Assembly: GCA_036500225.1 (NCBI GenBank)
Contig: DASYCJ010000055.1
Location: 8,143 to 72,142 of the forward strand
Direction: 5' to 3'
DNA: 64,000 nucleotides
DNA from: Gammaproteobacteria bacterium
Lineage (GTDB): Bacteria; Pseudomonadota; Gammaproteobacteria; Natronospirales; REEB76
Of this stretch, positions 5,734 through 48,517 are shown piece by piece (position 1 is the stretch's first letter; the number at the start of each line of letters is the position of its first letter). Below the pieces are notes generated by a model. The model saw only the letters and a list, made by a program, of their open reading frames with translations, searched no databases and was not told the DNA's origin. The position numbers and the translations under genes were made by a program.

Positions 5734-5827
5734 GAGGACCCTGCCCTGGGTTTGAAGATTCCCGGGCAGTATAGCGCTGACACCACGGCAGGGTTGACGC
5801 CCTGCCGCGGTGTCACACCTTGTTACA

Positions 5828-8547: not shown

Positions 8548-8684
8548 TGTTGGATACCCCGGAAGAGCGACAGCTTAGCCCCTATTGGATTGCGCCCGGG
8601 CAGATTGGTTCGCCCCCGAAGCGGCCGGAACTGCGGTTTTTAGCTATGATGCAAGTCATTGATCGGATTGGGGTGTCATAAACA

Positions 8685-11886: not shown

Positions 11887-11895
11887 GAGCCAGAC

Positions 11896-12381
11896 ATGCC
11901 TTCTTTCGACGCCGTCTCCAAGGTCGACACCGCCGAACTCACCAACGCAGTGGACCAGGCCAGCCGCGAGATAGGCCAGCGCTATGACTTCAAGGGTTCC
12001 TCCGCCGCCATCGAACGCAGCGACGACCTGCTGACGCTGTTCGCCGACAGTGAGTTCCAGCTCAAGCAGGTGATGGACATCCTGTACGGCAAGGCTGCCA
12101 AGCGCGGCATCGACGTCTCCAGTTTCGACCCGCAGAAGATCGAAGCCATCAGCGGCGACAAGGCCAAGCAGGCCATCAAGGTGAAACAGGGTATCGAGAA
12201 GGAACTGGCGAAGAAGATGGTGAAGTTGGTCAAGGACAGCGGCCTCAAGATCCAGGCCGCCATCCAGGGGGACGAGCTGCGGGTCTCCGGCAAGAAGCGC
12301 GACGACCTGCAAGCCTGCATGGCGCTGTTCCGTGGTGCGAAATTCGAACAGCCCATCCAATTCACGAATTTCCGGGATTGA
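11896..12381 (+). CDS. yajQ: YajQ family nucleotide/cyclic-di-GMP-binding protein (UPF0234)
   Basis: MPSFDAVSKVD...RYDFKGS...IQGDELRVSGKKRDDLQ...FTNFRD is collinear with E. coli YajQ (about 160 aa). Confidence 0.95.
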   Translation: MPSFDAVSKVDTAELTNAVDQASREIGQRYDFKGSSAAIERSDDLLTLFADSEFQLKQVMDILYGKAAKRGIDVSSFDPQKIEAISGDKAKQAIKVKQGIEKELAKKMVKLVKDSGLKIQAAIQGDELRVSGKKRDDLQACMALFRGAKFEQPIQFTNFRD

Positions 12382-12389
12382 TCCTCAGT

Positions 12390-13289
12390 CTATTCAGCTG
12401 GACTCACATCCAACGTCATGTCGTGAAAATCTAAAGTCAGCAGGGTTCCCGCGAAGAACTCATTGCCCACCGTGCCCTGGAAGCGCTCCTGATAGGGCTG
12501 ATGCACCTTGATGGTGGGGAAATACACCGTGGCCGGATGCGACAGCACCGTGCCAGCGAAACCGGTGGAATCCACTTGTACTCCCAGCATATCCACGCCG
12601 CCGTCGGTGATGGGGAAGTTGCGCACGATGGCGTGCTCAGTAGCCTTCTCGAAACCGAAGCTCTTCTCAGCGCCGCTGAAGATGAGCAGCGAACCGGTAT
12701 AGCTGGTATCGATCTGGGCCTCCAAGGACTTACCGTCTACGGTGAAGGGTCCACCCACCACGATGGGCGGACCCCAATCATGGAAGTCCACCAGCTTTAG
12801 CACACCCTTCCCCGGCTTCGGGTGTTCATCGGGTCTCAGGAGCTGTGACACCCGGATCAGGTGACGCTTGTAATCGATCTGCAGCACCCGGTCCTTGAAG
12901 AAGGTGTAATCCAGGGTGCCGGTATATTTGGCCAGCACGCCCATCTGGTCCGGAGACATCGCCAGGAAATCGGCACTGCCCTGAGCTCCGGCGAACTCAG
13001 CGGGCTTGGGCCCATCCGTGAGGAACAGGCCGGCCACGACCTGGTTCTGGGATTTATAGGGAGTGAGCTTCCAGCCCAAGGCGCGCGCCACGTTCTCCGA
13101 TATGGAGGAGTGGTTGTAGCTGGTGTCCAGCAGGAAGGTGTGGGGCTTGTGATCGGAGAGCGTCACCTGGATACAGATGGCGCCATCGCAGGGCCTGAAG
13201 GGTACCGCGGTGCCGTATTCCACGGTACCGCCCTGGGCGGCACCTGAAGCGAGTAGGGCCAGCGCCGCCGATGCTATCCGTCCGTACAT
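12390..13289 (-). CDS. secreted protein with two tandem retropepsin-like (clan AA aspartic-protease-like) lobes carrying D-T-S motifs
   Basis: I moved the start to the ATG at 13289 (MYGRIASAALALLASGAAQG signal peptide, GGGAG about 6 nt upstream). Each half has the retropepsin-like layout: ...TFLLDTSYNHSSIS...GTLDYTFFKDRVLQIDY and ...EAQIDTSYTGSLLIF...GTVGNEFFAGTLLTLDF. Confidence 0.55.
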   Translation of the reverse strand: MYGRIASAALALLASGAAQGGTVEYGTAVPFRPCDGAICIQVTLSDHKPHTFLLDTSYNHSSISENVARALGWKLTPYKSQNQVVAGLFLTDGPKPAEFAGAQGSADFLAMSPDQMGVLAKYTGTLDYTFFKDRVLQIDYKRHLIRVSQLLRPDEHPKPGKGVLKLVDFHDWGPPIVVGGPFTVDGKSLEAQIDTSYTGSLLIFSGAEKSFGFEKATEHAIVRNFPITDGGVDMLGVQVDSTGFAGTVLSHPATVYFPTIKVHQPYQERFQGTVGNEFFAGTLLTLDFHDMTLDVSPAE

Positions 13290-13381
13290 GGAACACTCCC
13301 GCCTGCGCCGAGCTGGCAGCATTGGGAGTGTCTGAATGGAAGGAAGTTCCCTGGCCTTAAGGTCAGACCGGAAACCGGCTG

Positions 13382-14197
13382 TCAGTGCTTGTCGTCCTTG
13401 AAGATATCACGACGCACTTCATTGTCGCCCAGCGGCCCGAAGCGCAGGTCAGCGAGCCCGGCGGTGACTTTCAGGTCCACGTCGTCCTTGCCCTTACCCT
13501 GCTGGGTGACACTGTTGCCGAGCATGTGCAGGTGACTCAGGAAACCATCGTTCTTCTCCGGCGGCGGGCCGTAGTACTGCCCATCCAGACTGAGGACCGC
13601 CAGGCCGAAGGTACTCTTGATCGTGACGTCCCGCGGCTCGTCAGCATCGGAGATCACATGCAACCGGCCGGCACTGAGACGGCCATAGATGGCACCGCTG
13701 GGGACGTGGATCACCACTTCGCCCGCCGCGAGCTGTGCTTTCACGCCGCCCTTCACGCCATCGATGGCCATGCGTCCTTCCCCCATGGAGGCATCCACGC
13801 CGAAGCGCTCCGGCACTTGCACGGTCCACTCCTGTTTCACATCGCTGTTATGATCGTCGCCGGACGGGAAGATCACCGACAAGGTCAGGGTATCGCCCTT
13901 GTGGACCTGGCCTATCTTGGCGCCTTCGGTATCACGCAGGGTTGCTTCGGTGGATAAGGCGATGCCGAGCACATGCCGCTCCTCCTGTTGCATCACCAAC
14001 GTCACGTGTACTGCATCGTCCGGCGATACGCTGATGCTGGTCTCGCCGGCGGTACCTTTGAGCGAGAGGAACTGGAGCCCAGCGGCCGGGATGTCAGTCT
14101 TGAGAGTCACGGGTTCGCTACCAGAATCCCGCACGCTGCAACCCGTGAGGGCCAGGGCCGCTGCGAGCGTGCCGAATACGATGAGATGACGTGTCAT
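13382..14197 (-). CDS. lipoprotein with C-terminal short beta-strand repeats (DUF4097/LiaG-like), paralog of 14194..15024
   Basis: Lipobox LALTGC. It shares collinear motifs with the upstream gene product (DIPAAGL/DIEAAGL, DDAVHVTL/DDEVHVQL, VKQEWTVQVP/VKQEWDVQVP). Confidence 0.65.
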   Translation of the reverse strand: MTRHLIVFGTLAAALALTGCSVRDSGSEPVTLKTDIPAAGLQFLSLKGTAGETSISVSPDDAVHVTLVMQQEERHVLGIALSTEATLRDTEGAKIGQVHKGDTLTLSVIFPSGDDHNSDVKQEWTVQVPERFGVDASMGEGRMAIDGVKGGVKAQLAAGEVVIHVPSGAIYGRLSAGRLHVISDADEPRDVTIKSTFGLAVLSLDGQYYGPPPEKNDGFLSHLHMLGNSVTQQGKGKDDVDLKVTAGLADLRFGPLGDNEVRRDIFKDDKH

Positions 14198-15024
14198 TTC
14201 CCTGCTCCCTTGTGGGCGGCGTCCGCTGACGTGAGGTGCAGGGTCACCTGGCCGATGTTGAGTCTGAGATCCATACTGTCCGGGCCGTCACCGTCCATGG
14301 AGACCTTGTTGCCCAGGCCGCCGTGCTCGTGCACACCCGATTCAGCGCCCTGGAACAATAGGGTCGCATCGCCGATGTTGCTGGCGAGCTGGATGCGGCC
14401 ATGGTGGCTGCTGGCAGACTTGGCGCGGATCTCACCCACGTTCACGTCTGCATCGATGCTGCCCTGGGGCACGTCGATCTCGAGTTCACCCACGTCGAGC
14501 TTGGCACCGACACCGCCGGCCACGTCGGCGATGTCCATCTCGCCCACGTTCATGACCGAATCGAGCTTGAGGCGCACCGGCACCTGCACGTCCCATTCCT
14601 GCTTGACCTCGTCCTGGTCATGGCCGTCGAGGTCCAGAGACAGAGTCAGGCGCTTGTCCTTGCGATCCTGATGGATCGAGGCAGCGGAGATGTCGTGGGA
14701 CAAGCCGCCGGACCAATGCAGGAAACCCAGGAAGGAGCGCTCCTTGGGACGCAGCGTCAGCTGCACATGCACTTCATCATCATGGGATGCCGTCACGCGC
14801 AGCTCGCCGACACGGACCTGCAGCCCCAAGGTATCGAGACCGGCAGCCTCGATATCCGCATTCAGGGTGCGAGGACCGACATGCCGGCTGTCCTCACCGA
14901 CGACACCCTGCTCGGTGTCGTCACGCATCTCGGAACTGCGGTCGGGATGCTTGGCCGCGTACCAAGCGAAACTGCCGACCAACAGGACGATGATGGCGAC
15001 CAGGACTGCAGTGGTCTTGTTCAT
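14194..15024 (-). CDS. membrane-anchored protein with beta-strand repeats (DUF4097/LiaG-like), paralog of 13382..14197
   Basis: N-terminal transmembrane anchor (TAVLVAIIVLLVGSFAWYAA). Repeats of the V-G-E-x-x-I type follow (VGEMDIADV, VGELEIDV, VGEIRAKS). ATGA overlap with the downstream paralog. Confidence 0.65.
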   Translation of the reverse strand: MNKTTAVLVAIIVLLVGSFAWYAAKHPDRSSEMRDDTEQGVVGEDSRHVGPRTLNADIEAAGLDTLGLQVRVGELRVTASHDDEVHVQLTLRPKERSFLGFLHWSGGLSHDISAASIHQDRKDKRLTLSLDLDGHDQDEVKQEWDVQVPVRLKLDSVMNVGEMDIADVAGGVGAKLDVGELEIDVPQGSIDADVNVGEIRAKSASSHHGRIQLASNIGDATLLFQGAESGVHEHGGLGNKVSMDGDGPDSMDLRLNIGQVTLHLTSADAAHKGAGK

Positions 15025-20000: not shown

Positions 20001-22454
20001 ATGCTGATCTCACTGCTCTGGCTCCTGGTGTTCATCGGCGGCAGCCTGGCGCTGACCTATAACCGGGTCCCGCTGCTCATCTCGAGCCTGGCCTACGCGG
20101 CTTTCCTCATCGTCTATACCGTGGCCGGCGCCGGCCCGGATTGGCTGAAGCTGCTGTTCTGGGTGATCTTCCTGGGTGTAGCCATCCCGCTGAACGTGCC
20201 GGCCTTGCGTCGCGCCTGGATCTCGAAGCCATTGCTGGACGTGTTTCGCAAGATCATGCCGGAGATGTCCCAAACCGAAGCCGATGCACTCGAAGCGGGC
20301 AGCGTGTGGTGGGACGGTGAACTCTTCAGTGGCCGCCCCAACTGGACGCGCCTGCTCAACACTCCGGTGCCGAAGATCAGCGCCGAAGAGCAGGCCTTCC
20401 TCGATAACGAGGTGGTGGAACTCTGCGGCATGCTGGACGAGTGGAAGATCACCCACGAGTGGTGCGACCTGCCGCCGGAAGCCTGGGCTTACCTGAAGAA
20501 GAAAGGCTTCTTCGCCATGATCATCCCCAAGCGCTACGGCGGGCGGGAGTTCTCGGCGCTCGCCAACTCAGAAGTGCTAGCCAAGATCGCCACCCACAGC
20601 GCCACCTGCGCCTCCATCGTGGCGGTACCGAACTCGCTCGGACCGGCGGAACTCCTGCTGCGCTATGGCACCGAAGAACAGAAGAACCACTACCTGCCGC
20701 GCCTCGCCGACGGCACCGACGTGCCCTGTTTCGCGCTCACGGCCCCCAATGCCGGTTCCGACGCCGCCGCCATCAAGGACAGCGGCGTGGTGTGCAAGGG
20801 CACCTGGGAAGGCAAAGAGATCATCGGCATGCGCCTCAACTGGGACAAGCGTTACATCACGCTCGCGCCCATCGCCACGGTGCTGGGCCTTGCATTCAAG
20901 CTCTACGATCCTGAACACCTGATCGGCGACAAGGACGAATACGGAATCACCTGCGCCCTCATCCCGCCGCATCTAACGGGCATCACCATCGGCCGCCGGC
21001 ACTTCCCCTTGAACCTGCCGTTCCAGAACGGACCCACCCAGGGCAAGGACGTGTTCGTGCCCCTGGACTTCATCATCGGCGGCACCAAGATGGCCGGCCA
21101 CGGCTGGCGCATGTTGATGGAGTGCTTGGGCGCGGGCCGCGCCATCTCCCTGCCCTCCAACACCACCGGCGCCTCGCGCCTCGGGGTGTACACCACCGGC
21201 GCCTACGCGCGCATTCGCAAGCAATTCCGCCTGCCCATCGCCCGCTTCGACGGCGTGGATGAGGTGCTGGGCCGCATGGGCGGCACACTCTATGCCATGG
21301 AGTCGGTGCGCATCATGACCGCCGGCGCCATCGACCAGGGCGAGGCCCCGGCGGTGTGCGCCGCCATCTCCAAACTCCACGTCACCGAGATGGCGCGGCA
21401 CGTGGGCAACGACGCCATGGACATCCACGGCGGCAAGGGCATCCAGCTCGGCCCCAAGAACTATCTCGGTCGCGGTTACCAGTCCATACCCATCGCCATC
21501 ACCGTGGAAGGCGCGAACATCCTGACCCGCAACCTGATGGTCTACGGCCAGGGCGCAATCCGCTCGCATCCTTTCGTGTTGAAAGAGATGCGTGCTGCGG
21601 CGGACCAGGACCGTCATCGCGCTCTTGTCGACTTCGACCAGGCCCTGTTCGGTCACATGGGCCTGGCCTTCAGCAACGCGGCACGCTCCTTGTGGATGGC
21701 GCTCACCAGCGCCAAGTTCACCCGCGTGCCCGTGTCCACTCCCACCGAGCGCTACTACCAGCATATCAATCGCTTCAGTGCCTCGTTCGTGCTGGCCTCC
21801 GATGCGGCCATGCTGACTTTGGGCGGCGCACTGAAGAAGAAGGAGAAGCTCTCGGCGCGCCTGGGAGACATGCTGAGCTACATGTACATCGCCTCGGCGG
21901 CCCTGAAGCGCTTCGAGGACCAGAACCGCCCGGCGGAGGACCTGCCGCTCGTCGAATACGCCTGCCGCGATGCCCTGTACCGCTTCCAGGAATCCATGCA
22001 CGGTTTCCTGCGCAACTTCCCCAACCGCTTCGTGGCGGCGGTGCTGCGCTTCCTCATCTTCCCGCGGGGCCGCAGTTACTCCGCTCCCAGCGACCATCTC
22101 GGCCATGAGATCGCAGAACTGATCTCGACCCCGGGACCGGGTCGTGACCGGCTGACCCGCAACACCTATACCGGCGACTTGAGCGGTCCGGTGGGTATCT
22201 TCGGTGAAGCCCTGGAACTCGCCACCCGTCTCGAAGTGGTGGAGCACCGTATCCGCGACGCGGAGAAGGCGGGCAAGCTCAAGCTCGGCCGCGGCGCCAA
22301 CCCGGCACTGGTGGCGGAGGAAGCCGGCATCATCACGGCGGATGAGAGCCGCGCGCTGCTACGCCTCGATGAACTCACCGCCAAGATCGTGGCGGTGGAC
22401 GACTTCGACCCCATGGATCTGGGTACGCATCCGTTCAAACCTATCAAGGCATGA
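20001..22454 (+). CDS. fadE: large acyl-CoA dehydrogenase, FadE type
   Basis: 817 aa. N-terminal transmembrane helices are followed by the ACAD core (FALTAPNAGSDAAAIKD, ...GANILTRNLMVYGQGAIRSHP) and the C-terminal extension typical of E. coli FadE. Confidence 0.9.
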   Translation: MLISLLWLLVFIGGSLALTYNRVPLLISSLAYAAFLIVYTVAGAGPDWLKLLFWVIFLGVAIPLNVPALRRAWISKPLLDVFRKIMPEMSQTEADALEAGSVWWDGELFSGRPNWTRLLNTPVPKISAEEQAFLDNEVVELCGMLDEWKITHEWCDLPPEAWAYLKKKGFFAMIIPKRYGGREFSALANSEVLAKIATHSATCASIVAVPNSLGPAELLLRYGTEEQKNHYLPRLADGTDVPCFALTAPNAGSDAAAIKDSGVVCKGTWEGKEIIGMRLNWDKRYITLAPIATVLGLAFKLYDPEHLIGDKDEYGITCALIPPHLTGITIGRRHFPLNLPFQNGPTQGKDVFVPLDFIIGGTKMAGHGWRMLMECLGAGRAISLPSNTTGASRLGVYTTGAYARIRKQFRLPIARFDGVDEVLGRMGGTLYAMESVRIMTAGAIDQGEAPAVCAAISKLHVTEMARHVGNDAMDIHGGKGIQLGPKNYLGRGYQSIPIAITVEGANILTRNLMVYGQGAIRSHPFVLKEMRAAADQDRHRALVDFDQALFGHMGLAFSNAARSLWMALTSAKFTRVPVSTPTERYYQHINRFSASFVLASDAAMLTLGGALKKKEKLSARLGDMLSYMYIASAALKRFEDQNRPAEDLPLVEYACRDALYRFQESMHGFLRNFPNRFVAAVLRFLIFPRGRSYSAPSDHLGHEIAELISTPGPGRDRLTRNTYTGDLSGPVGIFGEALELATRLEVVEHRIRDAEKAGKLKLGRGANPALVAEEAGIITADESRALLRLDELTAKIVAVDDFDPMDLGTHPFKPIKA

Positions 22455-23941
22455 GCACCCCCCTCGTCTACGAAGTCACGCTCGACATCGACGCCGGCGC
22501 GGTCTCGGAGTTCGACGCCTGGCTAAAAGACCACGTCCGCGAGATGCTGGCGCTGCCGGGCTTCCACGACGCGCGCATCCTCAAGCCCGAGAGTACCGAA
22601 GCCGGCAGCGAGCGGCGGGTGGTGCAGTACACCCTGGGCAGCCGCGCTGAACTCGACCATTATCTGGCTGAGCACGCGCCGCGCATGCGCGCCGATGGCG
22701 TGCAACGCTTCGGCGACAAGATGAAAGCCAGCCGCCGGATCTTCGACCTGGACGTGCCGGCCACCGGCACATTGGCGCTGCCTGGGCTGGTGCTGCCACC
22801 GGAAGGCCCGCGCTGCCGCAACTGCGGGACGCCGCTCACCGGCAAGTTCTGCATGGAATGTGGACAGAAGAACCACACCTATATGGCGCCGCTGTGGACC
22901 GTGCTGCACGACTTCGCCGCGACCCATTTCGGCTTCGATACCAAGTTCTTCCATAGCATCGTGCCGCTGTTGTTCCGGCCGGGCTTCCTCAGCCGCGAGT
23001 TCTGCCTCGGCCACGAGGAACGCTACGTCAAGCCGTTCCGCATGTACCTGTTCACCAGCATCGTGTTCTTCTTCCTGGCGGCGATCTTCTGGCCGCAGCT
23101 AGGCGTGAACAACAACCCCAACAACGGCGACCTAAACAGCAAGCTCGAACATGGGGTCGCGACGAAGCCCGATCCGGGCATGACCCGCGCCGCCATCGAC
23201 AAGGCTCTCCAGCAGATCGATGCTCAACCCATCGATCCAGAACGCAAGGCTTTCGCCAAGTCCATCCTGCTGGATGAACTCGCGGCCCTGGACGTGCCGC
23301 CGCCTATCAGCAAAGACAAGCCTACGGCCGCGGCCGGTACCCGGGCCGTCGCCTCGGCGGCGACCAAAGGCGGAACTCGGCCCGTGGTCACCGATTCCTT
23401 CGACATCGAGACCGGCGACTCGGCTCCCGCTCCTGGCGTCCACGTGAACACCACGTCGGGAGCGGACCAGGACGCGGACAATCGTTTCACCGCGCTGTTC
23501 CTGGCGGTGAAGAAGAATCCGGATGAGTTCACCAAGCGTTTCATGCAGAACCTGCCGAAGCTGATGTTCGTGCTGATGCCGCTGATCGCCCTGTTCCTGA
23601 AACTGTTCTACATCGGTTCCAAACGCTATCTCACCGAGCACTTCGTCTTCACTCTGCACTTCCATGCCATGGTATTCGTGGTGCTGCTGCTGGTGATGCT
23701 GGCCGGTTCCTTGAGTCACCACTACATCTGGGCCGCGCCGCTCAAGTCCGCCGGCAAATTGGCCTGGTGGTACATCATGGTGTATCTGTTCCTGGCGCTG
23801 CGCTTCTTCTACAAGCAGGGTTGGTTCATGACCGGCCTCAAGTTCTTCATGCTGTTCATCAGCTACAGCATCGCCTTCGGTCTGACCTTCGCCGCCGGAG
23901 CCGTGGTCGCCGCCGCCGAGATAGGCGCCCCCGTAAGCTGA
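22451..23941 (+). CDS. fusion protein: DUF4286-like N-terminal domain + zinc ribbon + DUF3667-like membrane domain
   Basis: N-terminus VYEVTLDID...FDAWLKDHVREML..VVQYTLGSRAELDHYLAEHAPRMR. Then CRNCGTPLTGKFCMECGQ. Then LFRPGFLSREFCLGHEERYVKPFRMYLF and several helices. The start overlaps the fadE stop (ATGA). Confidence 0.6.
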   Translation: MSTPLVYEVTLDIDAGAVSEFDAWLKDHVREMLALPGFHDARILKPESTEAGSERRVVQYTLGSRAELDHYLAEHAPRMRADGVQRFGDKMKASRRIFDLDVPATGTLALPGLVLPPEGPRCRNCGTPLTGKFCMECGQKNHTYMAPLWTVLHDFAATHFGFDTKFFHSIVPLLFRPGFLSREFCLGHEERYVKPFRMYLFTSIVFFFLAAIFWPQLGVNNNPNNGDLNSKLEHGVATKPDPGMTRAAIDKALQQIDAQPIDPERKAFAKSILLDELAALDVPPPISKDKPTAAAGTRAVASAATKGGTRPVVTDSFDIETGDSAPAPGVHVNTTSGADQDADNRFTALFLAVKKNPDEFTKRFMQNLPKLMFVLMPLIALFLKLFYIGSKRYLTEHFVFTLHFHAMVFVVLLLVMLAGSLSHHYIWAAPLKSAGKLAWWYIMVYLFLALRFFYKQGWFMTGLKFFMLFISYSIAFGLTFAAGAVVAAAEIGAPVS

Positions 23942-40307: not shown

Positions 40308-40337
40308 GAACCCCGCCAACAGGCGGGGTTCGTTTTA
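40308..40337 (+). terminator. rho-independent terminator after the S9 peptidase gene, abutting the next start codon
   Basis: GAACCCCGCC-AACA-GGCGGGGTTC followed by GTTTTA. The final A is the first base of the ATG at 40337. Confidence 0.75.
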
Positions 40338-42490
40338 TGGCCACCAAGACTTTCACCAAGCCGGAAGACTGTGTCGAAGCCATCCTCGCCAAGGTGGGGC
40401 CACGGCTGGTGGTGGGCGCTCCGCTCGGTATCGGCAAGCCCAACCACCTCGTGAACGCGCTGTTCAGGCGCGTGGCCGCGGACCCCAAGCTCTCCATGCG
40501 TCTGGTCACCGCCCTGTCCCTGGAACGGCCCGTGGCCAAGAGCGATATCGAGAAGCGCTTCCTCGATCCCTTCGCTGCCCGGGTGTTCGGCGACTATCCG
40601 GAGCTGGAATACATGCAGGCCCTGCGGGAGCATCGGCTGCCGGCCAACGTCGAACTCTCGGAGTTCTACTTCAAGTCCGGCGCCATGCTGGGAGTGAAGT
40701 CGGCCCAGCAGAACTACATCAGCAGCAACTACACCCACGTGGCGCGGGACATGCTGTCGGCCGGGGCCAACGTGGTGTTGCAGGCGGTGGCCGTGCAGCC
40801 TGGGCCCCGCTACAGCCTCGCCTCCAATCCTGACGTGACACTCGACATCTATCCGGGCCTGCGTGCTGCCGAGAAGGCCGGCCGGCCTGTGGCTGTCGCC
40901 GGCATGGTGAACCGCAAGCTGCCCTACATGTTCGGCGGCGCCGAGGTGCCTTCGGACTTCTTCGATTTCATGGTGGACGACCCGGCTCTCGACCATACGC
41001 TCTTCTCCGTGCCCAACATGCCCATCGACCCGGCCGCCCACATGATCGGGCTGCACGCGAGCGCGCTGGTACGGGACGGCGGCACCATCCAGGTGGGCAT
41101 CGGTTCCCTGGGGGATGCCTGCATCCATGCCACACGCCTGCGACACGGGGATAACGCCGGATACCGTCGGGCTCTGGAACAGGCCGGTGTGCTGGAACGC
41201 TGCAAGGAGGTGATCGAAGCCGTGGGCGGTGCCGGCAGCTATCGCCAGGGCCTCTATGCCGGTAGCGAGATGTTCGGCGACGGCCTCCTGCAACTCTATG
41301 AAGCTGGCGTGCTGAAACGCCGGGTCTACGACCACAGGGGCCTGCAAAGCCTCCTGGAACTCGGTCGCATATCGGAACAGGTGAGCGAAGACACACTATT
41401 GGCCCTGAGAGAAGCCGATCTGATCGGTGCCAAACTCAGCGCTGAAGACGTGGCCTTCCTGAAACAGTTCGGCATCTTCCGGCCGGATGTGGGCTACTCA
41501 GACGGCGCACTCGCCCTGCCGGACGGTGGTCATGTGGCGGCAGATCTGGACGACCGTGCAGCTCTGAGACGCATCGCCGACACGGCCCTGGGCGCGAGCC
41601 TGCAGGGCGGCGTATTGGTCCACGGCGCGTTCTTCCTCGGTAGCCGCTGGTTCTACGAGACCCTGCATCGCATGCCTGAGCTTGAGCGACGCCAGTTCGC
41701 CATGGAAGCGGTTTCCATGGTCAACGAGCTCTTCAGCGACGTGGATCTGGAGAAGCTGCAGCACAAGCAGGCGCGCTTCATCAACATCTGCATGAAGGTG
41801 ACCTTGCTCGGGTCCACCGTCTCGGACTCTCTGGATGAAGGCCGCGTGGTGAGCGGCGTGGGCGGCCAGTACAACTTCGTGGCCATGGCGCATGCGCTGC
41901 GGCAAGCCCGCTCCATCCTGCTCCTACGCAGCACTCATAGGAGCCGTGGCAAGCTCGAATCCAACATCGTCTGGGAATATGCCCACTCTACCGTGCCACG
42001 ACATCTGCGTGACATGGTGGTGACGGAATACGGTATCGCTGACCTGCGCGGCAAGCGCGACTGGGAAGTGATCGCCGCCATGCTGAACCTGGCCGACTCG
42101 CGTTTCCAGCCTGGTCTCTTGGCCCGGGCCAAACGTGCCGGCAAGTTGCCGGACGACTACCAGATCCCCGAAGCTTTCCGGCACAACATCCCGGAAGCCG
42201 TGCGCCAGAGGCTCGCGCCCCTGCAAGCCGCAGGTCTGTTCCCGGAACTTCCCTTCGGTTCCGACTTCACGCCGGAAGAGCTCAAGCTCGGCAAGGCGCT
42301 GAAATATCTGCAGGCCAAGAGCGGCAGCCTCAGCGGCATGTTGAGCTTGGGACTCTCCATACTGCGTGCGCCGCGTCCGGAGACGGCTACCTGCTTGGCG
42401 CGCATGGATCTCGCCGCTCCGCGCGGCTTGAAGCAGGTGGCGCTGGCACGACTGGTGGCTGCTGCGCTGGTGGACAGCGGGGCCCTCTAG
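40337..42490 (+). CDS. acetyl-CoA hydrolase/transferase family protein (long form)
   Basis: 717 aa. The N-terminus (PEDCVEAILAKVGPRLVVGAPLGIGKPNHLVNAL) and the later GVGGQYNFV motif resemble the acetyl-CoA hydrolase/CoA-transferase fold. Confidence 0.6.
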   Translation: MATKTFTKPEDCVEAILAKVGPRLVVGAPLGIGKPNHLVNALFRRVAADPKLSMRLVTALSLERPVAKSDIEKRFLDPFAARVFGDYPELEYMQALREHRLPANVELSEFYFKSGAMLGVKSAQQNYISSNYTHVARDMLSAGANVVLQAVAVQPGPRYSLASNPDVTLDIYPGLRAAEKAGRPVAVAGMVNRKLPYMFGGAEVPSDFFDFMVDDPALDHTLFSVPNMPIDPAAHMIGLHASALVRDGGTIQVGIGSLGDACIHATRLRHGDNAGYRRALEQAGVLERCKEVIEAVGGAGSYRQGLYAGSEMFGDGLLQLYEAGVLKRRVYDHRGLQSLLELGRISEQVSEDTLLALREADLIGAKLSAEDVAFLKQFGIFRPDVGYSDGALALPDGGHVAADLDDRAALRRIADTALGASLQGGVLVHGAFFLGSRWFYETLHRMPELERRQFAMEAVSMVNELFSDVDLEKLQHKQARFINICMKVTLLGSTVSDSLDEGRVVSGVGGQYNFVAMAHALRQARSILLLRSTHRSRGKLESNIVWEYAHSTVPRHLRDMVVTEYGIADLRGKRDWEVIAAMLNLADSRFQPGLLARAKRAGKLPDDYQIPEAFRHNIPEAVRQRLAPLQAAGLFPELPFGSDFTPEELKLGKALKYLQAKSGSLSGMLSLGLSILRAPRPETATCLARMDLAAPRGLKQVALARLVAAALVDSGAL

Positions 42491-42494
42491 AGGC

Positions 42495-43196
42495 TCAACG
42501 GTTCAGGGCCCAACCGGTGATGGCATAGCGCGGTCGTGGTGCGGCATCGCTCACCTTGCTGACGAAGTGCCCCATGGGCACGCGGAACAGGGCCAGGGAG
42601 TTGAAGCGCGGCAGATAGCGCTCGCTGACCCGGCCCTCGGGGTCACTGAAATTCAGGGTGCCGCCCCAGTCCTCCTCCCAATCCCGCGTCAGGTTCAGCA
42701 CGTAGGCGATCTCGCGGTCAGTACCGCGTTGATCGTTGTGATACGTGAGGAAATGCCCGGGCAGGTAGCGCGTCGCCTGCGCATTGGCCTTGACCAGCGT
42801 GCGGCTGCCCGAGATGGCGCCCAGCAAGCCGATGAAGATACGCGTGTTCAGGAATTCGACGAAGCTATGCAGCAGCAAGCCCGGGTCGCGCCGTTCCCGG
42901 TATGCACTCACCATCATGTAGGTGCCATACAGGAAAGCGAAGCCCCGTCCCGCATCGCTCTCGGCGCGCTGGCGGATGCGGGCCAGGTCCCCGGGACCCC
43001 AGCTGCGCAGCGTCTCCGCCTGGGCGATGACAGGTTGTCCTTGCTCCATATACGTCAGCCCCCAGGGCACGGCTTGGTCGAGGCAGGTATGCAGAGCTTG
43101 AGCCGCATCCTGGGACAGGAAATCCGCGATGAGCACGCGGCCATCGCGGCGGAAGTCCGCGGCGGCACGCTCGACGTCCAGCTCCGGGTTCAGCAT
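42495..43196 (-). CDS. 2OG-Fe(II) oxygenase (prolyl-hydroxylase-like) family protein
   Basis: ATRYLPGHFLTYHNDQ (HxD) ... IAYVLNLTRDWEEDWGGTL ... PRFNSLALFRVPMGHFVSKV (distal His) ... RYAITGW. Confidence 0.7.
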   Translation of the reverse strand: MLNPELDVERAAADFRRDGRVLIADFLSQDAAQALHTCLDQAVPWGLTYMEQGQPVIAQAETLRSWGPGDLARIRQRAESDAGRGFAFLYGTYMMVSAYRERRDPGLLLHSFVEFLNTRIFIGLLGAISGSRTLVKANAQATRYLPGHFLTYHNDQRGTDREIAYVLNLTRDWEEDWGGTLNFSDPEGRVSERYLPRFNSLALFRVPMGHFVSKVSDAAPRPRYAITGWALNR

Positions 43197-43236
43197 CTCG
43201 AGACCATGCAGGCCGGACCCGCCATCACGGCCGGGT

Positions 43237-45864
43237 CTAAGCCAGACCGGTCCGGCGACGCCTGCGCAACCCCAGGAACAAGCCCAATAGCGGCAGCATC
43301 GGCAGCCAGAAGGCGCCCAGGAAGGAATGTCCGCCGCCGCTATCCCCCACCGGGTTCTTCTGCACGTTGATGGGGATGGTCGCGATGTTCGAGAGCTTGA
43401 CGCCGTCGCTCACCTGGAAGGACATGGTATCCAGGCCGGTGACTCCGGTATTGGCCTGATAGTTGAAGATCCCGGTAGTGGTCCCGTAACTCAGGGTGCC
43501 ATCCAGGGGCAGCGTAGTCACGACGTAGGTCAGGGTATCGCCGTCCACGTCGAGGGCCGGGAAGAAGCTGATAGCCGGTTGCCGGCCATCGGGTATCACC
43601 AGGGCCGTGGGCAGGGCGCGCGGCGCCTGATCCGCGGCCACCACGCCGTGGATCTCGGTCATCACGTTCACGTCGTCGCTGTCGCCGTTGACTACCGCCA
43701 GATCCGGCTGGCCGTCCTCATCGAAGTCGCCGATGGCGACGCCGCGCGGTCCGATCTCGGTCGCGTAGGGCGAACTCAGGAAGCCGCCTTTGCCGTTGCC
43801 GAGCATTACGCCCACCGCGCTGCTGCCGGAACAGCTCACCACCACGTCGGGATCGCTGTCCGCATTCAAGTCTGCCACCGTAATACTACGAGGGTTGGCG
43901 CAGGTAGGGAATGGGGACGGCACGGTGGCAAAGAAGCCCTTGCCGTTACCTGTCATCACTACCAGTTCGCTGTCGCTGGAATCAGCGATGAGTATGTCCA
44001 AGTGATGATTGTTGTTCACGTCCGCCAGGCTGACGCGCACGCCGACGGCGCCGTAGATGTCCACGCTGGTACCGCTGTGGTTTAGGGTCGGCGTGATCAA
44101 GCCTCCCTTATGGTCGTTCTTCAATACTGCGACGTTTCCGCCCACAGTTACCACATCGGGGAAACCGTCTTGTTCCACATCACCTACCGCCAGACCGTTT
44201 ATCTGGGTCGAGGAGGGATAACTGACGCGTGCCCGGAAGGTGCCGTCGCCGTTGCCGCGCAGGATACTGACGGTATTGACCACTGCGTTGGCCACCACCA
44301 GGTCTAGCTTGCCATCGTGGTCCATGTCGGCGATGCCGATATCCACGGCATTGGAGCCGGCTTCGAAGTCATGCGCCGCACCGAAACCGCCGAGGCCATC
44401 GCCGAGCAGCACGCTGACACTGTTGTCGCCGGAGTTGACGGTGACGGCGTCCAGGATACCGTCACCATTCAGGTCTGCCAGCAATACGCGTTGCGGGTTG
44501 GCGCCCACCTTGAAAGTCTGCTGTACCTGGAAAGTGCCGTCTCCATTGCCGAGACGCACGCTCAGGGTATTGTCCGCAGAATCGGTCTCCACCAAATCCA
44601 AATGACCGTCGCCGTTCAGATCCGCAGTCTGCACATCGCTGGGTGTATTGCCGGTGGTATAGGAGTTCTGCAGATGGAAATGACCGGTGCCGTCGTTGTA
44701 CAACAGCTGCATGAGACTGGCGTCCGCGTTGACGACCGCGATGTCCGGTTTGCCCGTACCTCTGAAGTCGGCGACCGTGAGACCCTGCACTTCCAGGGCG
44801 CCGGCGATGCCGTTGGCTGGATAGTCGACTCCGGAACCGAACCCCCCGTTGCTGTTACCGCGTAGCACCCGCACCGTGCCATTGGCGAGACTGCCGGCGA
44901 TCAGATCCTGCAAGCCGTCTCCGTCCACATCGGCCACGGCCAAGTAGGTGCTCTGCAAGCCGGTCTCAATGAAGTGCCCCGGTTTGAATCTTCCGTCGCC
45001 CAGGCCGGGGAGATATATCACCGAATCCCCATTCACATCGGTGGAGGTGGTGATCACGTCCTGCTTGCCGTCGCGATTGAAGTCGCCGACTACCATCATC
45101 TGTAACTGCGAGGTCGGGAGCTGGGGACCCAGTCGGGTGGTAGTCATGGCCTTGAAGGCTCCGCCCCCCGCGTTGAGTAGGACGCCGATGTTGTCGTCCA
45201 GGTTGTTGTTAACCAGGATGTCGGGCTTGCCATCGTTGTTCATGTCGGCGACGGCGACGAATATCGGGCCGACGCCCACTGGGACCACCTCTTCCGGCTT
45301 GAGGGTGCCATCGCCCCTGCCGATGAGCACGCTCAGGGTGTTGTCGTTGAAGTTGGCCGTGATCACGTCGGGCACGCCGTCTCCGTTCAGGTCAGCGATG
45401 GTAATCGCTACCGGATCCAGGCCCGTCGGGTAGGTCGGGACCGGCGTGCCGACGCTGTTGGCGGCCTGGTCGGCGGTCTGGGCCTTGAAGGTGCCGTCAC
45501 CAACACCTAACAACACACTGATGTTGTTATCGGTGCTGTCGACCACTACGATATCCACGTTGCCATCGCGGTTGAGGTCAGCCACCGCCAGCGCCTCAGG
45601 CTGGGTGCCAGCGACGTAATAGGCGATAGGGCTCTTGAAGGTACCGTCGCCGTTGTTGATGAGCACAGCGATGGTCTGATCGGTGCCGATCTCGACCAAG
45701 TCCAGCTTACCGTCCCCGTTGACGTCCGCATTCACCACTGCTGCGGGGCCGTTGAGCGTGGAGAAGAACTGGGTCGGATAGAGGCCCTTGGCGGACACGA
45801 CGCCGCAATAGGCGAGAGCCGCTAGCCCCAGGGCATAGCCGGGCAGGAGTCGTCTGCTGTGCAT
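43237..45864 (-). CDS. secreted FG-GAP/VCBS repeat protein (14 blades) with a cadherin-like domain and a GlyGly-CTERM-type sorting tail
   Basis: There are 14 D-x-(N/D)-x-D-G-x-x-D loops, some degenerate (DVNGDGKLD ... DFDEDGQPD). The C-terminus is DSGGGHSFLGAFWLPMLPLLGLFLGLRRRRRT. Confidence 0.85.
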   Translation of the reverse strand: MHSRRLLPGYALGLAALAYCGVVSAKGLYPTQFFSTLNGPAAVVNADVNGDGKLDLVEIGTDQTIAVLINNGDGTFKSPIAYYVAGTQPEALAVADLNRDGNVDIVVVDSTDNNISVLLGVGDGTFKAQTADQAANSVGTPVPTYPTGLDPVAITIADLNGDGVPDVITANFNDNTLSVLIGRGDGTLKPEEVVPVGVGPIFVAVADMNNDGKPDILVNNNLDDNIGVLLNAGGGAFKAMTTTRLGPQLPTSQLQMMVVGDFNRDGKQDVITTSTDVNGDSVIYLPGLGDGRFKPGHFIETGLQSTYLAVADVDGDGLQDLIAGSLANGTVRVLRGNSNGGFGSGVDYPANGIAGALEVQGLTVADFRGTGKPDIAVVNADASLMQLLYNDGTGHFHLQNSYTTGNTPSDVQTADLNGDGHLDLVETDSADNTLSVRLGNGDGTFQVQQTFKVGANPQRVLLADLNGDGILDAVTVNSGDNSVSVLLGDGLGGFGAAHDFEAGSNAVDIGIADMDHDGKLDLVVANAVVNTVSILRGNGDGTFRARVSYPSSTQINGLAVGDVEQDGFPDVVTVGGNVAVLKNDHKGGLITPTLNHSGTSVDIYGAVGVRVSLADVNNNHHLDILIADSSDSELVVMTGNGKGFFATVPSPFPTCANPRSITVADLNADSDPDVVVSCSGSSAVGVMLGNGKGGFLSSPYATEIGPRGVAIGDFDEDGQPDLAVVNGDSDDVNVMTEIHGVVAADQAPRALPTALVIPDGRQPAISFFPALDVDGDTLTYVVTTLPLDGTLSYGTTTGIFNYQANTGVTGLDTMSFQVSDGVKLSNIATIPINVQKNPVGDSGGGHSFLGAFWLPMLPLLGLFLGLRRRRRTGLA

Positions 45865-45999: not shown

Positions 46000-47403
46000 T
46001 CAGGGTTTACCGGTCCCCGACTGGTCCGGGGTGAAGGCGCCGGCCGCCCCCGGGAACACCACCGGGCTCTCGAAACCATCCTGCGAGACGGCGGCTACGC
46101 CGAAGAACCAGTCATCGATGCTCACATCCTTCAGCAGGTAATGCTGCACCGGTCCGACGTAGTGGCCGGCGTTCCAGCGCGGGTCGATGGTGGCCCGCCA
46201 GTGCAAACGGTAGCCGGCCGCACCAGCCGAGGGCTTCCAGTCGAACACCGTGTCGGTGCCGCCGGACAGGCCAGGAGCAGGATCGGAAGCGATGCTGACG
46301 CCCGAGGGCGGTGCCGGCGCCCAGGCCATGCCGGCCAGGGCGATGGCATTGGTCGCCGCCACCTTGGCGAGGTAGGGGAAGTCCACTCCGGAGAGCACAT
46401 CACCGTAATGTATGCCACCCTCGACCCTCACGTCCTGGTGCTGGTGCGTGAAGTCTTCGTGGGACTCGGTGAAGCGTACCGCCGGATAGCCCAGCTCATT
46501 GAAAGCCACTTGGTCCCCGCCACGTCCATAACGGTCGGTGCGATACACCATCATCACGTGCCAGTTAGGGATGTAACGCTCCGCCTGCAAGGCATAGCGC
46601 GCCACGTTTCGCGAAGGTGAGTCCACTTCGCCGCCGTGATAACGCCGTTCGTTGGCTTCCTTGGGCGTCTCCAGGGCGCGCGTGCCCTCCGAGAAGACCC
46701 GCACAGTGGTGTTGTCGGTGACGCCGTTCTGGCCATGGCTGTTGCCGACGATGTCGTTGTTGAGATCTGCCTCCACCTGCCACTGGTGGTTATGGGCGTA
46801 CTGGGCGATGACCTTACCACCGTACAGGCCCTGCTCCTCACCGCTGTCCACCGAGTAGACGATGCTGGCGGCGAACTTATACTTGCTGAGCACCCGCGCG
46901 GTCTCCAGCACCGCCGCCACACCGGAACCGTCATCGTCGGCACCGGGCGCATCGGATTTGGCATCCATCACGTCGCGCACCCGCGAGTCCAGGTGCCCGG
47001 TCATCACCAGGTAACGGTCGGGATCAGTGGCGCCCCTCTGGATGGCCACGATGTCCATGACATCGACCCCGTCTTTGGGCGTGCGCTCGCCGGTGAAGAC
47101 CTGCGAAGGTGTGATGACCTCGAGACAGCCGCCGCAGTCCTTTGATATCTGCTTGAAGCGGGACTGCACCCAGCGTCGTGCCGCGCCGATGCCACGCTTG
47201 TCCGATTTGGTATCGGAGAGAGTGCTGCGGGTGCCGAAGCCCACCAGGGTGCTGAGGGTGGACTGGAGCTGGGCCGGGTCCATGGCCTCTGCGATCTCAC
47301 CGAACACCGGATGCTCGTCCGGGGGCGGCGGCGCCATGTCGCCGGCGAAAGCCACGGCGGTGAGGAGGCTTGAGAGCAGTACAGGCAGGACGCGCAAGCG
47401 CAT
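46000..47403 (-). CDS. secreted M28-family metallopeptidase with a C-terminal FN3-like domain
   Basis: I moved the start to the ATG at 47403 (MRLRVLPVLLSSLLTAVAFA signal peptide). Motifs: TGHLDSRV, GADDDGSGVAAVLETA, SGEEQGLYGG. Confidence 0.85.
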   Translation of the reverse strand: MRLRVLPVLLSSLLTAVAFAGDMAPPPPDEHPVFGEIAEAMDPAQLQSTLSTLVGFGTRSTLSDTKSDKRGIGAARRWVQSRFKQISKDCGGCLEVITPSQVFTGERTPKDGVDVMDIVAIQRGATDPDRYLVMTGHLDSRVRDVMDAKSDAPGADDDGSGVAAVLETARVLSKYKFAASIVYSVDSGEEQGLYGGKVIAQYAHNHQWQVEADLNNDIVGNSHGQNGVTDNTTVRVFSEGTRALETPKEANERRYHGGEVDSPSRNVARYALQAERYIPNWHVMMVYRTDRYGRGGDQVAFNELGYPAVRFTESHEDFTHQHQDVRVEGGIHYGDVLSGVDFPYLAKVAATNAIALAGMAWAPAPPSGVSIASDPAPGLSGGTDTVFDWKPSAGAAGYRLHWRATIDPRWNAGHYVGPVQHYLLKDVSIDDWFFGVAAVSQDGFESPVVFPGAAGAFTPDQSGTGKP

Positions 47404-47605: not shown

Positions 47606-48517
47606 ATGCGCAAACCCTCCCGGATCCTGAACCTCGTCCTCTTGCTGACTGCACTGGTCGCCCAGTCCGGTTGTGGGGGCGGAAGCAGCAGCAATACCAC
47701 CCCTGGCGAGTTCACCATCGCTGTGCTTCCCACCAGCGCCTCGGTACCGGTCGGCAGTGACCGCCAGTTCACCGCTGAAGCCCGCGATTCCACCGGCGAC
47801 GTGCTCACCGGCGTGACCTTCACCTGGCACTCCTCCGACACCCGCATCGCCATCCCCGTCGGCGGCGGCAGCTTCCGCGGCATCGCGGTGGGCGTGGCCA
47901 ACATCACCGCCAGCGCCAGCATCGTGATCAAGGCCGGCCAGGGCATCACCAACATCGTCAGTCCCGCCGTGCCTCTCTCGGTGATCAGCGGCGTTGAAGG
48001 CACCGCCGCCCGGGGCGCGCCCCTGGCTGACGCGAGCGTGAGCCTGCGAGATGCCGAAGGCCAATATGCTGCAACCAGCGCCGATGCGAATGGACATTTC
48101 CAGATCGAGACGGCCGGCATGACCGGTCCCTTCCTGCTCAAGGCCACGACACCGGACGGCCGCGTGCTCTACGGAATGGCCGCGGACGTGGGCACTGCCA
48201 ACGTAGACCCCTACACCGACGTGTTGGTGCGTAACTGGTACGCCGCTCACGGCGCCGATCCGGACCAAGCCTTCGCCGGCCAGGCAGCCCTGCCCCAGAT
48301 CCATGACCTGCAGGTATCGGACCAGAGCCTGGTGAAACAGTTGGGCCCAGAACTCACGGCCCATGGTCTGGACGCGGCCCACTTCAGCCTGCTCAACACG
48401 CCTTTCACCGCGGATCATTCGGGCTTCGACGCGGTCGTGGACCAGAGCCGGATTAACCCCGCTTCCCGTAGCATCCAGGTGGAGGGCAAGAGCCTCCAGC
48501 TGGCGGCGAGCCCCTGA
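47606..48517 (+). CDS. lipoprotein with a Big_2 Ig-like domain and a carboxypeptidase-regulatory-like domain
   Basis: I moved the start to the ATG at 47606 (MRKPSRILNLVLLLTALVAQSGC lipobox). Big_2-like: VPVGSDRQFTAEARDSTGDVLTGVTFTWHSSD. CarboxypepD_reg-like: GAPLADASVSLRDAEGQYAATSADANGHFQIE. Confidence 0.7.
   Translation: MRKPSRILNLVLLLTALVAQSGCGGGSSSNTTPGEFTIAVLPTSASVPVGSDRQFTAEARDSTGDVLTGVTFTWHSSDTRIAIPVGGGSFRGIAVGVANITASASIVIKAGQGITNIVSPAVPLSVISGVEGTAARGAPLADASVSLRDAEGQYAATSADANGHFQIETAGMTGPFLLKATTPDGRVLYGMAADVGTANVDPYTDVLVRNWYAAHGADPDQAFAGQAALPQIHDLQVSDQSLVKQLGPELTAHGLDAAHFSLLNTPFTADHSGFDAVVDQSRINPASRSIQVEGKSLQLAASP

Follow-up and report, generated by a model that had tools for sequence, protein, structure and literature searches.

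A predicted tandem FG-GAP propeller protein with a C-terminal membrane tail and its neighbouring 2OG-Fe(II) oxygenase in a gammaproteobacterial locus

On the minus strand of the window, the 64-kb stretch of DNA analysed here, the gene of a large FG-GAP repeat protein is followed at a short distance by the gene of a 2OG-Fe(II) oxygenase (Table 1). This arrangement raises the question whether the tail of the repeat protein is a GlyGly-CTERM sorting signal and whether the oxygenase modifies its neighbour, as a sequence-only reading of the locus had proposed. Based on our analysis we favour a Sec-exported double-propeller envelope protein with a C-terminal stop-transfer tail, encoded beside an unrelated cytosolic oxygenase. 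To this joint reading we assign a probability of about 0.6.

Table 1. Features of the FG-GAP/oxygenase locus (positions in the window)
Feature	Positions	Strand	Basis
Acetyl-CoA hydrolase/transferase-family gene, convergent	40337..42490	+	Pfam AcetylCoA_hyd_C 5.7e-39
Single-domain 2OG-Fe(II) oxygenase, 233 aa, prolyl-hydroxylase (Tpa1/OGFOD1/PPHD/PHD) clade	42495..43196	-	Pfam, profile search, AF2/Foldseek
Spacer between FG-GAP gene and oxygenase gene, 40 nt	43197..43236	-	Sequence
FG-GAP/VCBS repeat gene, 875 aa, stop codon included	43237..45864	-	ORF and Pfam; NCBI name 'FG-GAP-like repeat-containing protein', HEY4127698.1
Tripartite C-terminal tail, residues 841-875	43240..43344	-	Sequence; ortholog tails
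Big_9 bacterial Ig/cadherin-like beta-sandwich, residues 746-832	43369..43629	-	Pfam PF17963 E=6.5e-9
Repeats 8-14 (calcium loops residues 415-713), predicted second seven-bladed propeller	43654..44664	-	Motif positions, AF2, Foldseek
Repeats 1-7 (calcium loops residues 47-366), predicted first seven-bladed propeller	44665..45762	-	Motif positions, AF2
Sec-type signal peptide, residues 1-26 (MHSRRLLPGYALGLAALAYCGVVSA, followed by KG)	45787..45864	-	Read off sequence
M28 peptidase, upstream, probably 467 aa with own signal peptide	46000..47403	-	Pfam Peptidase_M28 1.6e-20; gene call

The repeat architecture given in the sequence-only reading was borne out. Pfam matched the protein with FG-GAP_3 (E=2.5e-106, 12 stretches) and FG-GAP (E=1.9e-33), and all 14 calcium loops of the DxNxDGxxD type were located. 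The first seven start at residues 47, 96, 158, 207, 261, 312 and 366 and the last seven at residues 415, 464, 513, 562, 615, 665 and 713; 12 loops are strict and two are degenerate (DFRGTGKPD and DVEQDGFPD). The protein has the at least seven consecutive repeats with Ca2+-binding DxDxDG loops that mark an integrin-type FG-GAP beta-propeller. Fourteen blades are consistent with the two seven-bladed propellers suggested before, the boundary between which is one that we infer. The cadherin-like module was recovered as the Big_9 domain, and one ortholog, L093, gave weak matches to Cadherin_4 and Cadherin_5 as well.

The AF2 model of the protein (pLDDT 76.7, pTM 0.56) was all-beta between residues 43 and 735, with blades of four strands, and the regular strand groups matched the 14 repeats. 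A beta-sandwich followed at residues 746-836 and the tail was disordered. Foldseek returned as best matches the tandem seven-bladed propeller proteins DDB1, CPSF160 and SF3B3 with TM values of 0.25-0.44, and a phmmer search against PDB sequences gave no match at 1e-3. Bacterial integrin-type propellers with 14 tandem repeats have been described previously (Chouhan et al. 2011, PMC3192720). The protein shares with these the Ca2+-binding DxNxDG loop in each blade and the 14-repeat tandem form. However, the examples described there are without a transmembrane segment, whereas the protein analysed here has, beyond its blades, a stalk of Ig/cadherin type, a transmembrane helix and a basic tail, and these additions would give it an integrin-alpha-like topology.

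Its signal peptide appears to consist of a basic n-region, a hydrophobic core and an AxA-type site, the latter being conserved in the orthologs. A lipoprotein signal was considered as well and rejected, as the cysteine of this region is missing from P0208 and hence not conserved, and the residue preceding it is non-canonical. Full-length collinear orthologs were rare, with two among the best 150 of 131,981 FG-GAP matches. When the C-terminal 186 aa were used as query, four ortholog fragments and nothing else were found, so the ortholog family is a rare one.

The protein ends in the sequence ...DSGGGHSFLGAFWLPMLPLLGLFLGLRRRRRTGLA. It is composed of the Ser/Gly-rich stretch DSGGGHS, the Gly/Pro-containing hydrophobic segment FLGAFWLPMLPLLGLFLGL and finally RRRRR followed by TGLA. 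The tail quoted in the sequence-only reading was correct in its sequence, to which three further residues are added here, and in its tripartite design; the tail had no match to the GlyGly-CTERM model TIGR03501. The Ser/Gly-rich stretch, the hydrophobic segment and the Arg cluster were kept in all 14 ortholog tails examined, and the motif (F/L)LG(G/A)F(W/G)(L/F)P was present in 11 of them, L093 and P0271 having the Leu/Phe variant LLGAFWFP. The helix-destabilising Gly and Pro residues, the conserved FLGGFWLP sequence and the Ser/Gly stretch ahead of it are features one would expect in a cleaved sorting signal more than in a plain anchor.

The best surviving alternative to a stop-transfer anchor, which we nevertheless consider rather unlikely, is that the tail is a true, if divergent, GlyGly-CTERM signal which a rhombosortase from another part of the genome cleaves after the Gly/Ser motif, with the oxygenase still being unrelated. 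The new C-terminus would then be placed on a glycerophosphoethanolamine lipid and the double propeller displayed on the cell surface, with the type II secretion system as the probable route. In its favour, residues 841-875 show what the loose curation of GlyGly-CTERM proteins asks for (PMC3237569), namely the tripartite design and a Cys-free motif on a protein with a signal peptide, with only TGLA beyond the Arg cluster. The constancy of this design among the orthologs speaks for it too, and the Gly and Pro inside the hydrophobic segment resemble those of rhomboid substrates. Known substrates such as VesB of Vibrio cholerae likewise carry a Cys-free Gly/Ser motif, a hydrophobic helix and a basic cluster at the extreme C-terminus of a protein with a Sec signal peptide.

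In contrast to such substrates, the window tail fails the curated HMM: TIGR03501 (cutoff 15.5 bits) gave no match at E<=10, either in the whole protein or in three isolated tail fragments. Among the 13 other ortholog tails only that of L001 passed the cutoff (16.0 bits); P0272 scored 8.2 bits and the remainder gave nothing. The authors of the model state that it misses true cases and accept lower-scoring tails that are homologous to a trusted one (PMC3237569). However, L001 fits Synerg-CTERM better than GlyGly-CTERM. The 12 ortholog tails below the cutoff match the MYXO-, PEF- or Synerg-CTERM models just as weakly, a sign of no more than a generic similarity of a transmembrane segment followed by RRR. 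Of all curated sorting-domain models none was passed by the window tail, and among the orthologs L001 alone passed one, marginally. Membership in MYXO-CTERM, PEF-CTERM, PEP-CTERM and Synerg-CTERM was rejected, as no score reached its threshold and the residues that mark these classes (Cys, PEF, PEP) are absent. Furthermore, Gly-Gly is not present in all orthologs, the motif preceding the transmembrane segment in L088 being SSSSHS.

The immediate genomic context also differs from that of known GlyGly-CTERM systems. In genomes with a single target the rhombosortase is usually encoded adjacent to it (PMC3237569). Here, a scan of nine window ORFs, either multi-TM or close by, yielded no rhomboid, exosortase or CPBP gene, and no rhomboid or sortase-type Pfam family was annotated on the genes adjoining the ortholog in the clade loci with gene calls. 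Paralogous tails were not seen either: no second ORF with such a tail was present in the 64-kb window, nor any other in 96 related loci (about 1.3 Mb). A degenerate DNA pattern for FLG[GA]F[WG]LP-11aa-RRR had seven matches in the metagenome contigs, six of them chance matches out of context and the seventh the ortholog L088, so that the pattern was confined to an ortholog and no paralogous tail family emerged. A tail-only profile search of a 5.8-billion-protein database gave no match at E<=10, since short low-complexity tails cannot reach significance in a database of this size. The list of lineages with the GlyGly-CTERM system does not include this one, and a literature search for a link between rhombosortase and Xanthomonadales or Lysobacter found no such paper.

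Alternatively, the tail could be an undescribed signal specific to this family, its FLGGFWLP segment being recognised by another envelope protease or by a partner membrane protein. In favour of this, no curated C-terminal sorting model fits, and the transmembrane core is about as conserved among the orthologs as the folded domains (pairwise identity 56%, compared with 54% for the propellers and 45% for Big_9), a figure inflated by its low-complexity Leu/Gly/Pro composition. We consider this improbable, as no other protein family was found to carry the motif and the neighbourhood contains no candidate enzyme. Irrespective of its class, be it a divergent branch of GlyGly-CTERM or one of its own, it is doubtful that the tail is a real sorting signal by which an intramembrane protease encoded elsewhere lipid-anchors the double propeller at the surface. 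If true, this uncultured soil gammaproteobacterial lineage would provide the first case in which such a signal belongs to one rare orthologous family and has no sortase gene beside it.

The second gene of the pair encodes, as the sequence-only reading had stated, a prolyl-hydroxylase-like oxygenase with an HxD...H motif, 40 nt downstream on the same strand. It was matched by the Pfam families 2OG-FeII_Oxy_4 (8.6e-21) and 2OG-FeII_Oxy_3 (1.6e-16), and H153, D155 and H210 of the triad together with R223 were invariant across 20 homologues. A profile search against the PDB returned OGFOD1 (4e-13), Tpa1 (1e-8) and PPHD (6e-6). The AF2 model (pLDDT 95.3) had Tpa1, OGFOD1, PPHD and PHD2 as top Foldseek matches at E~1e-10. 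The DSBH fold, the triad and a basic 2OG-binding residue place the oxygenase in the prolyl-hydroxylase clade (PF13640/PF13661). Its sole NCBIfam match, YhhC, reached 22.5 bits against a cutoff of 150.

Fold, HxD...H motif and 2OG-binding Arg are shared with Tpa1 and OGFOD1, the prolyl 3-hydroxylases of uS12, and with PPHD of Pseudomonas, the prolyl hydroxylase of EF-Tu. However, the oxygenase is only 17-20% identical to these and has a single domain, whereas Tpa1 and OGFOD1 carry a second DSBH domain. The AspH-type EGF hydroxylases (PF05118) and the collagen prolyl 4-hydroxylases, to which the sequence-only reading drew the analogy, are 2OG oxygenases with secreted calcium-binding or repeat proteins as their substrates. 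They are located in the compartment of these substrates, whereas a signal peptide is absent from the oxygenase, its conserved N-terminus MLNP.LD not being of signal type. Neither a PF05118 match of the oxygenase nor any other PF05118 protein was found in the window, and collagen prolyl 4-hydroxylases were absent from the top 50 structural matches.

To compare the arrangement of the two genes we analysed the loci of both families. The FG-GAP gene lies in a syntenic clade of nine members, the window and eight ortholog loci. In six of these (the window and five loci) the oxygenase gene is located beside it on the same strand, with spacers ranging from 27 to 173 nt among the orthologs. The M28 peptidase gene adjoins in every syntenic ortholog locus whose contig reaches it, and was not seen in L002 and L093. 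In L088, L095 and L096 the M28 peptidase, FG-GAP and CoA-transferase genes are present with no oxygenase between them, the acetyl-CoA hydrolase/transferase gene directly abutting the FG-GAP gene. According to the trees L095 is the outgroup, and L088 and L096 are nested among oxygenase-bearing lineages. The genomes without the oxygenase at this locus may carry it elsewhere.

From the side of the oxygenase, 468 homologues and 300 genome loci were obtained, of which 80 loci were kept for analysis. The FG-GAP gene was present in two of these (L001 and L002), and any single neighbour was common to at most 21 of the 80. The closest oxygenase orthologs outside the clade are located beside sucAB in a Sel1-P4H/TPR-AspH/2OG-FeII_Oxy_5 cluster. 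In other genomes, a PF05118 protein neighbours orthologs of the oxygenase. Adjacency conserved across both families, as expected of a dedicated substrate/modifier pair, was not found. Since the syntenic block extends over at least 15 kb, the adjacency within the clade carries little information. No promoter or terminator consensus was detected in the intergenic spacers of the window, L001, L002 and L091, a result uninformative on co-transcription. Given the retained common orientation, the short spacers and the negative terminator scans, the two genes may be co-transcribed in the six members, or have an opportunistic functional link in this lineage.

The proposed hydroxylation of the repeat protein at Pro, Asp or Asn by the oxygenase draws on this same-strand arrangement, its retention in six clade members and the intact catalytic triad, but is very improbable given an adjacency confined to two of 80 oxygenase loci and one syntenic block, the loss of the oxygenase in three of nine clade members with FG-GAP gene and tail intact, a substrate exported unfolded via Sec past an enzyme without signal peptide, close relatives acting on the cytosolic or nuclear proteins uS12, EF-Tu and HIF, the lack of the AspH domain that hydroxylates Asp/Asn of EGF, and outgroup orthologs that cluster with other hydroxylases instead of FG-GAP genes. 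The sequence-only reading had itself named a tail without a TIGR03501 match and a non-conserved adjacency among three kinds of observation that would refute it, and both of these were made.

In the favoured reading, the FG-GAP protein would be exported by Sec as a calcium-binding protein of the envelope, its 14 integrin-type blades forming two tandem seven-bladed propellers on the Ig/cadherin-like Big_9 stalk. The Ser/Gly-rich linker, the hydrophobic helix with its Gly and Pro residues and the Arg cluster at its end would at minimum act as a stop-transfer anchor, with the Arg cluster in the cytoplasm and the propellers outside the inner membrane, like in integrin alpha. Judging from the fold, ligand binding or adhesion in the envelope is the most likely role of the protein, and a sortase-type intramembrane protease may cleave its tail. 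The oxygenase would be a cytosolic enzyme of prolyl-hydroxylase fold from a broad gammaproteobacterial family, and would probably stand beside the FG-GAP gene by chance, in this lineage only, instead of serving it as a dedicated modifying enzyme.

If the oxygenase did modify its neighbour, this would be one of few instances in bacteria where a secreted calcium-binding repeat protein is hydroxylated in a 2OG-dependent manner; the comparative evidence argues against it. The FG-GAP protein and its neighbouring oxygenase are thus a largely ordinary finding that would not surprise a specialist. For the function of the oxygenase family, the hydroxylase cluster in other genomes is perhaps the better lead. 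What remains is a bacterial tandem integrin-type propeller to which a stalk, a transmembrane helix and a basic tail are joined. It is mildly relevant to prokaryotic integrin-alpha-like architectures, and its tail bears on the limits of the GlyGly-CTERM model.

The protein encoded by the FG-GAP ORF, named 'FG-GAP-like repeat-containing protein' at NCBI (HEY4127698.1), was matched by the Pfam families FG-GAP_3 (E=2.5e-106, 12 stretches) and FG-GAP (E=1.9e-33), and its residues 746-832 were matched by Big_9, a bacterial Ig/cadherin-like domain (E=6.5e-9). A motif scan located 14 calcium loops at residues 47, 96, 158, 207, 261, 312, 366, 415, 464, 513, 562, 615, 665 and 713; 12 of these follow the strict pattern DxNxDGxxD and two are degenerate. 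The 14 integrin-like repeats and the cadherin-like module described in the sequence-only reading were thus confirmed. The AlphaFold2 model (shallow alignment, pLDDT 76.7) was all-beta, with regular four-strand blades at residues 43-735 and a beta-sandwich at 746-836; its tail was unstructured. As proposed, the repeats are sufficient in number for two seven-bladed propellers. Their 7+7 partition is likely according to the model, since its top PDB matches were the tandem seven-bladed propeller proteins DDB1, CPSF160 and SF3B3, although with low TM-scores.

Locations of the genes discussed and of the oxygenase island
Feature	Position	Strand	Remarks
CHASE2-Ser/Thr kinase gene	window 1-2373	-	
DUF4286/DUF3667 protein gene	window 22451-23941	+	
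2OG oxygenase gene	window 42495-43196	-	ORF, 233 aa
FG-GAP protein gene	window 43237-45864	-	ORF, 875 aa
M28 peptidase gene	window 46000-47403	-	
Predicted lipoprotein gene	window 47606-48517	+	
2OG-oxygenase island	L003 (oxygenase locus outside the FG-GAP clade) 4056-14744		similar in L004-L016, L018, L021, L030, L033

Proteins with FG-GAP repeats occur in very large numbers (131,981 cluster representatives at E<=1e-3), and tandem-propeller proteins with 14 integrin-type repeats have been known from bacteria since 2011 (PMC3192720). Unlike the FG-GAP protein of the window, these have no transmembrane segment. The collinear architecture with Big_9 and tail is rare: two full-length collinear orthologs were present among the best 150 of the 131,981 matches, and only a handful of ortholog fragments were found.

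The N-terminus, MHSRRLLPGYALGLAALAYCGVVSA followed by KG, looks like a Sec signal peptide by its sequence, and the AxA-type site is conserved across the orthologs. The C-terminus is DSGGGHS-FLGAFWLPMLPLLGLFLGL-RRRRR-TGLA. We gathered 13 further ortholog tails, among them those of the syntenic loci L001, L002, L088, L091, L093 and L094 and of the ortholog proteins or fragments P0125, P0208 and P0271 to P0274. All of them kept the Ser/Gly-rich stretch, the Leu/Pro-rich hydrophobic segment and the RRR(R) cluster, so that the proposed tripartite, GlyGly-CTERM-like design is present and conserved. The motif (F/L)LG(G/A)F(W/G)(L/F)P was found in 10 of the 13 and was lacking in P0208 and P0274; L093 and P0271 carried the Leu/Phe variant LLGAFWFP. 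In L088 the motif preceding the transmembrane segment is SSSSHS, hence Gly-Gly is not conserved.

Assignment of the tail to GlyGly-CTERM failed at the profile level. TIGR03501, the HMM of this sorting domain, gave no match to the window protein (NCBIfam) and none to any of three tail fragments scanned separately (E<=10); its authors state that it fails to catch some true cases (PMC3237569). Among the 13 further tails only that of L001 reached the cutoff of 15.5 bits (16.0), and there Synerg-CTERM scored higher (20.7 bits). The window tail gave sub-threshold matches to MYXO-CTERM (10-11 bits, cutoff 20), PEP-CTERM (9-11 bits, cutoff 16) and PTPA-CTERM. The remaining ortholog tails showed weak MYXO-, PEF- or Synerg-CTERM matches or none. 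We rejected membership in MYXO-, PEF- or PEP-CTERM, as the scores are weak and the signature residues (Cys, PEF and PEP) are missing. The score pattern indicates a generic similarity of transmembrane segment plus Arg cluster and not membership of one family.

Other ORFs ending in such a tail were found neither in the window nor in ~1.3 Mb of fetched loci, and scanning a metagenome collection with a degenerate DNA pattern of the tail motif returned one further ortholog and six chance matches. Because of these results and the HMM failures, the tail appears to be a conserved trait of one rare orthologous family, built like a sorting signal yet falling outside the GlyGly-CTERM model.

The FG-GAP protein would be exported via Sec, after which the signal peptide would be removed. 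The two putative propellers and the Ig-like stalk would fold on the outer side of the inner membrane, with Ca2+ bound, and the hydrophobic segment would act as a stop-transfer anchor that leaves the Arg cluster in the cytoplasm. By analogy with FG-GAP propellers in general, ligand or surface binding is the likely role. In a real but less probable alternative, which the tail design would suit, a protease of rhombosortase type would later cut the tail, and the protein would be anchored to a lipid and displayed at the surface, as in the VesB pathway (PMC6219818, PMC13393428). In single-target genomes the rhombosortase usually adjoins its target (PMC3237569). The earlier statement that the window holds no rhombosortase gene stands for the nine multi-TM or nearby ORFs scanned, which included no rhomboid, exosortase or CPBP gene, and no such annotation was found beside the FG-GAP gene at those ortholog loci that were supplied with gene calls.

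The oxygenase ORF follows the FG-GAP ORF after a spacer of 40 nt. It was matched by 2OG-FeII_Oxy_4 and 2OG-FeII_Oxy_3 (Pfam), and in an alignment of 20 homologues H153, D155, H210 and R223 were invariant, confirming the HxD...H triad; the likewise conserved N-terminus MLNP.LD is no signal peptide. A profile search against PDB sequences ranked OGFOD1 (4e-13), Tpa1 (1e-8) and Pseudomonas PPHD (6e-6) before PHD2, and Foldseek returned the same order for the confident AF2 model (pLDDT 95.3). The label 'prolyl-hydroxylase-like' is therefore right, and the enzyme is an uncharacterised member of a known superfamily. The targets of its nearest characterised relatives are cytosolic or nuclear (uS12, EF-Tu, HIF). 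EGF Asp/Asn residues are hydroxylated by AspH-type enzymes (PF05118), a family without a Pfam match in the window oxygenase.

Genes of the nine-member syntenic clade are arranged as M28 peptidase, FG-GAP, oxygenase where present, convergent CoA-transferase, S9 peptidase and Cys/Met PLP enzyme. Of the nine, the window, L001, L002, L091, L093 and L094 have the oxygenase. L088, L095 and L096 lack it at this locus, and there the FG-GAP gene abuts the CoA-transferase (4-nt overlap to ~64 nt). In neighbour-joining trees, whether built from the CoA-transferase or from the FG-GAP protein, L095 was the outgroup and L088 and L096 were nested among the oxygenase-bearing lineages. The simplest history would be a single insertion at the FG-GAP/CoA-transferase junction and one or two later losses, with the FG-GAP gene and its tail retained throughout.

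In the window, 135 nt separate the FG-GAP gene from the same-strand gene just upstream, which encodes the secreted M28 peptidase. This upstream gene adjoins the FG-GAP gene at all syntenic ortholog loci whose contig reaches that far (L001, L088, L091, L094, L095 and L096), including the three without oxygenase. The FG-GAP gene keeps this neighbour more stably than it keeps the oxygenase, albeit within a block that is syntenic as a whole. A predicted lipoprotein of 303 aa (LVAQSGC lipobox; weak matches to Big_2 and CarboxypepD_reg) is encoded divergently to the M28 peptidase; at this place GC3-based gene picking wrongly favoured an overlapping antisense ORF. The L001 contig (JBLNDO010000054.1) is labelled 'MAG: Bacillota bacterium' but is probably mis-binned or misclassified, since roughly 18 kb of it run collinear with the gammaproteobacterial window at 54-87% protein identity.

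Outside this clade the pairing was not conserved. We found 468 oxygenase homologues at E<=1e-5, mostly annotated as Gammaproteobacteria or Lysobacterales, confirmed 300 loci in species-representative genomes and retained 80 with 10-kb flanks. By tblastn with the window proteins, an FG-GAP ortholog adjoined the oxygenase in only two of the 80, L001 and L002, whose entire neighbourhood is syntenic with the window; clustering of the flanking ORFs revealed no neighbour common to more than 21 of the 80. No terminator or promoter consensus was present in the FG-GAP/oxygenase spacers examined, so co-transcription is possible, which by itself says little. A dedicated pair of FG-GAP substrate and oxygenase modifier is highly improbable, because of the locus history and because the compartments do not match, the enzyme being cytosolic and the proposed substrate exported by Sec. 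The proposed hydroxylation of the repeat protein, by an enzyme that is not of AspH type, does not hold, and the functional coupling is refuted on two of the three tests named for it, the tail HMM and the adjacency.

Two further window genes encode a fusion of a CHASE2 sensor domain with a Ser/Thr protein kinase (~5 TM segments, at least 791 aa, running past the window start) and a 496-aa membrane protein with DUF4286, double zinc ribbon and DUF3667.

For the closest non-syntenic oxygenase orthologs (46-50% identity) the commonest neighbours were other oxygenases, none of which occurs in the window. In ~20 genomes that do not belong to the FG-GAP clade, the ortholog lies in an island of genes for a Sel1-repeat plus 2OG-FeII_Oxy_3 protein (445 aa), a 352-aa protein without Pfam match, a TPR plus Asp_Arg_Hydrox protein (494 aa) and a 2OG-FeII_Oxy_5 protein (252 aa). 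This island adjoins sucA/sucB, the 2-oxoglutarate dehydrogenase E1/E2 genes, and may hold a clue to what the oxygenase family actually does.
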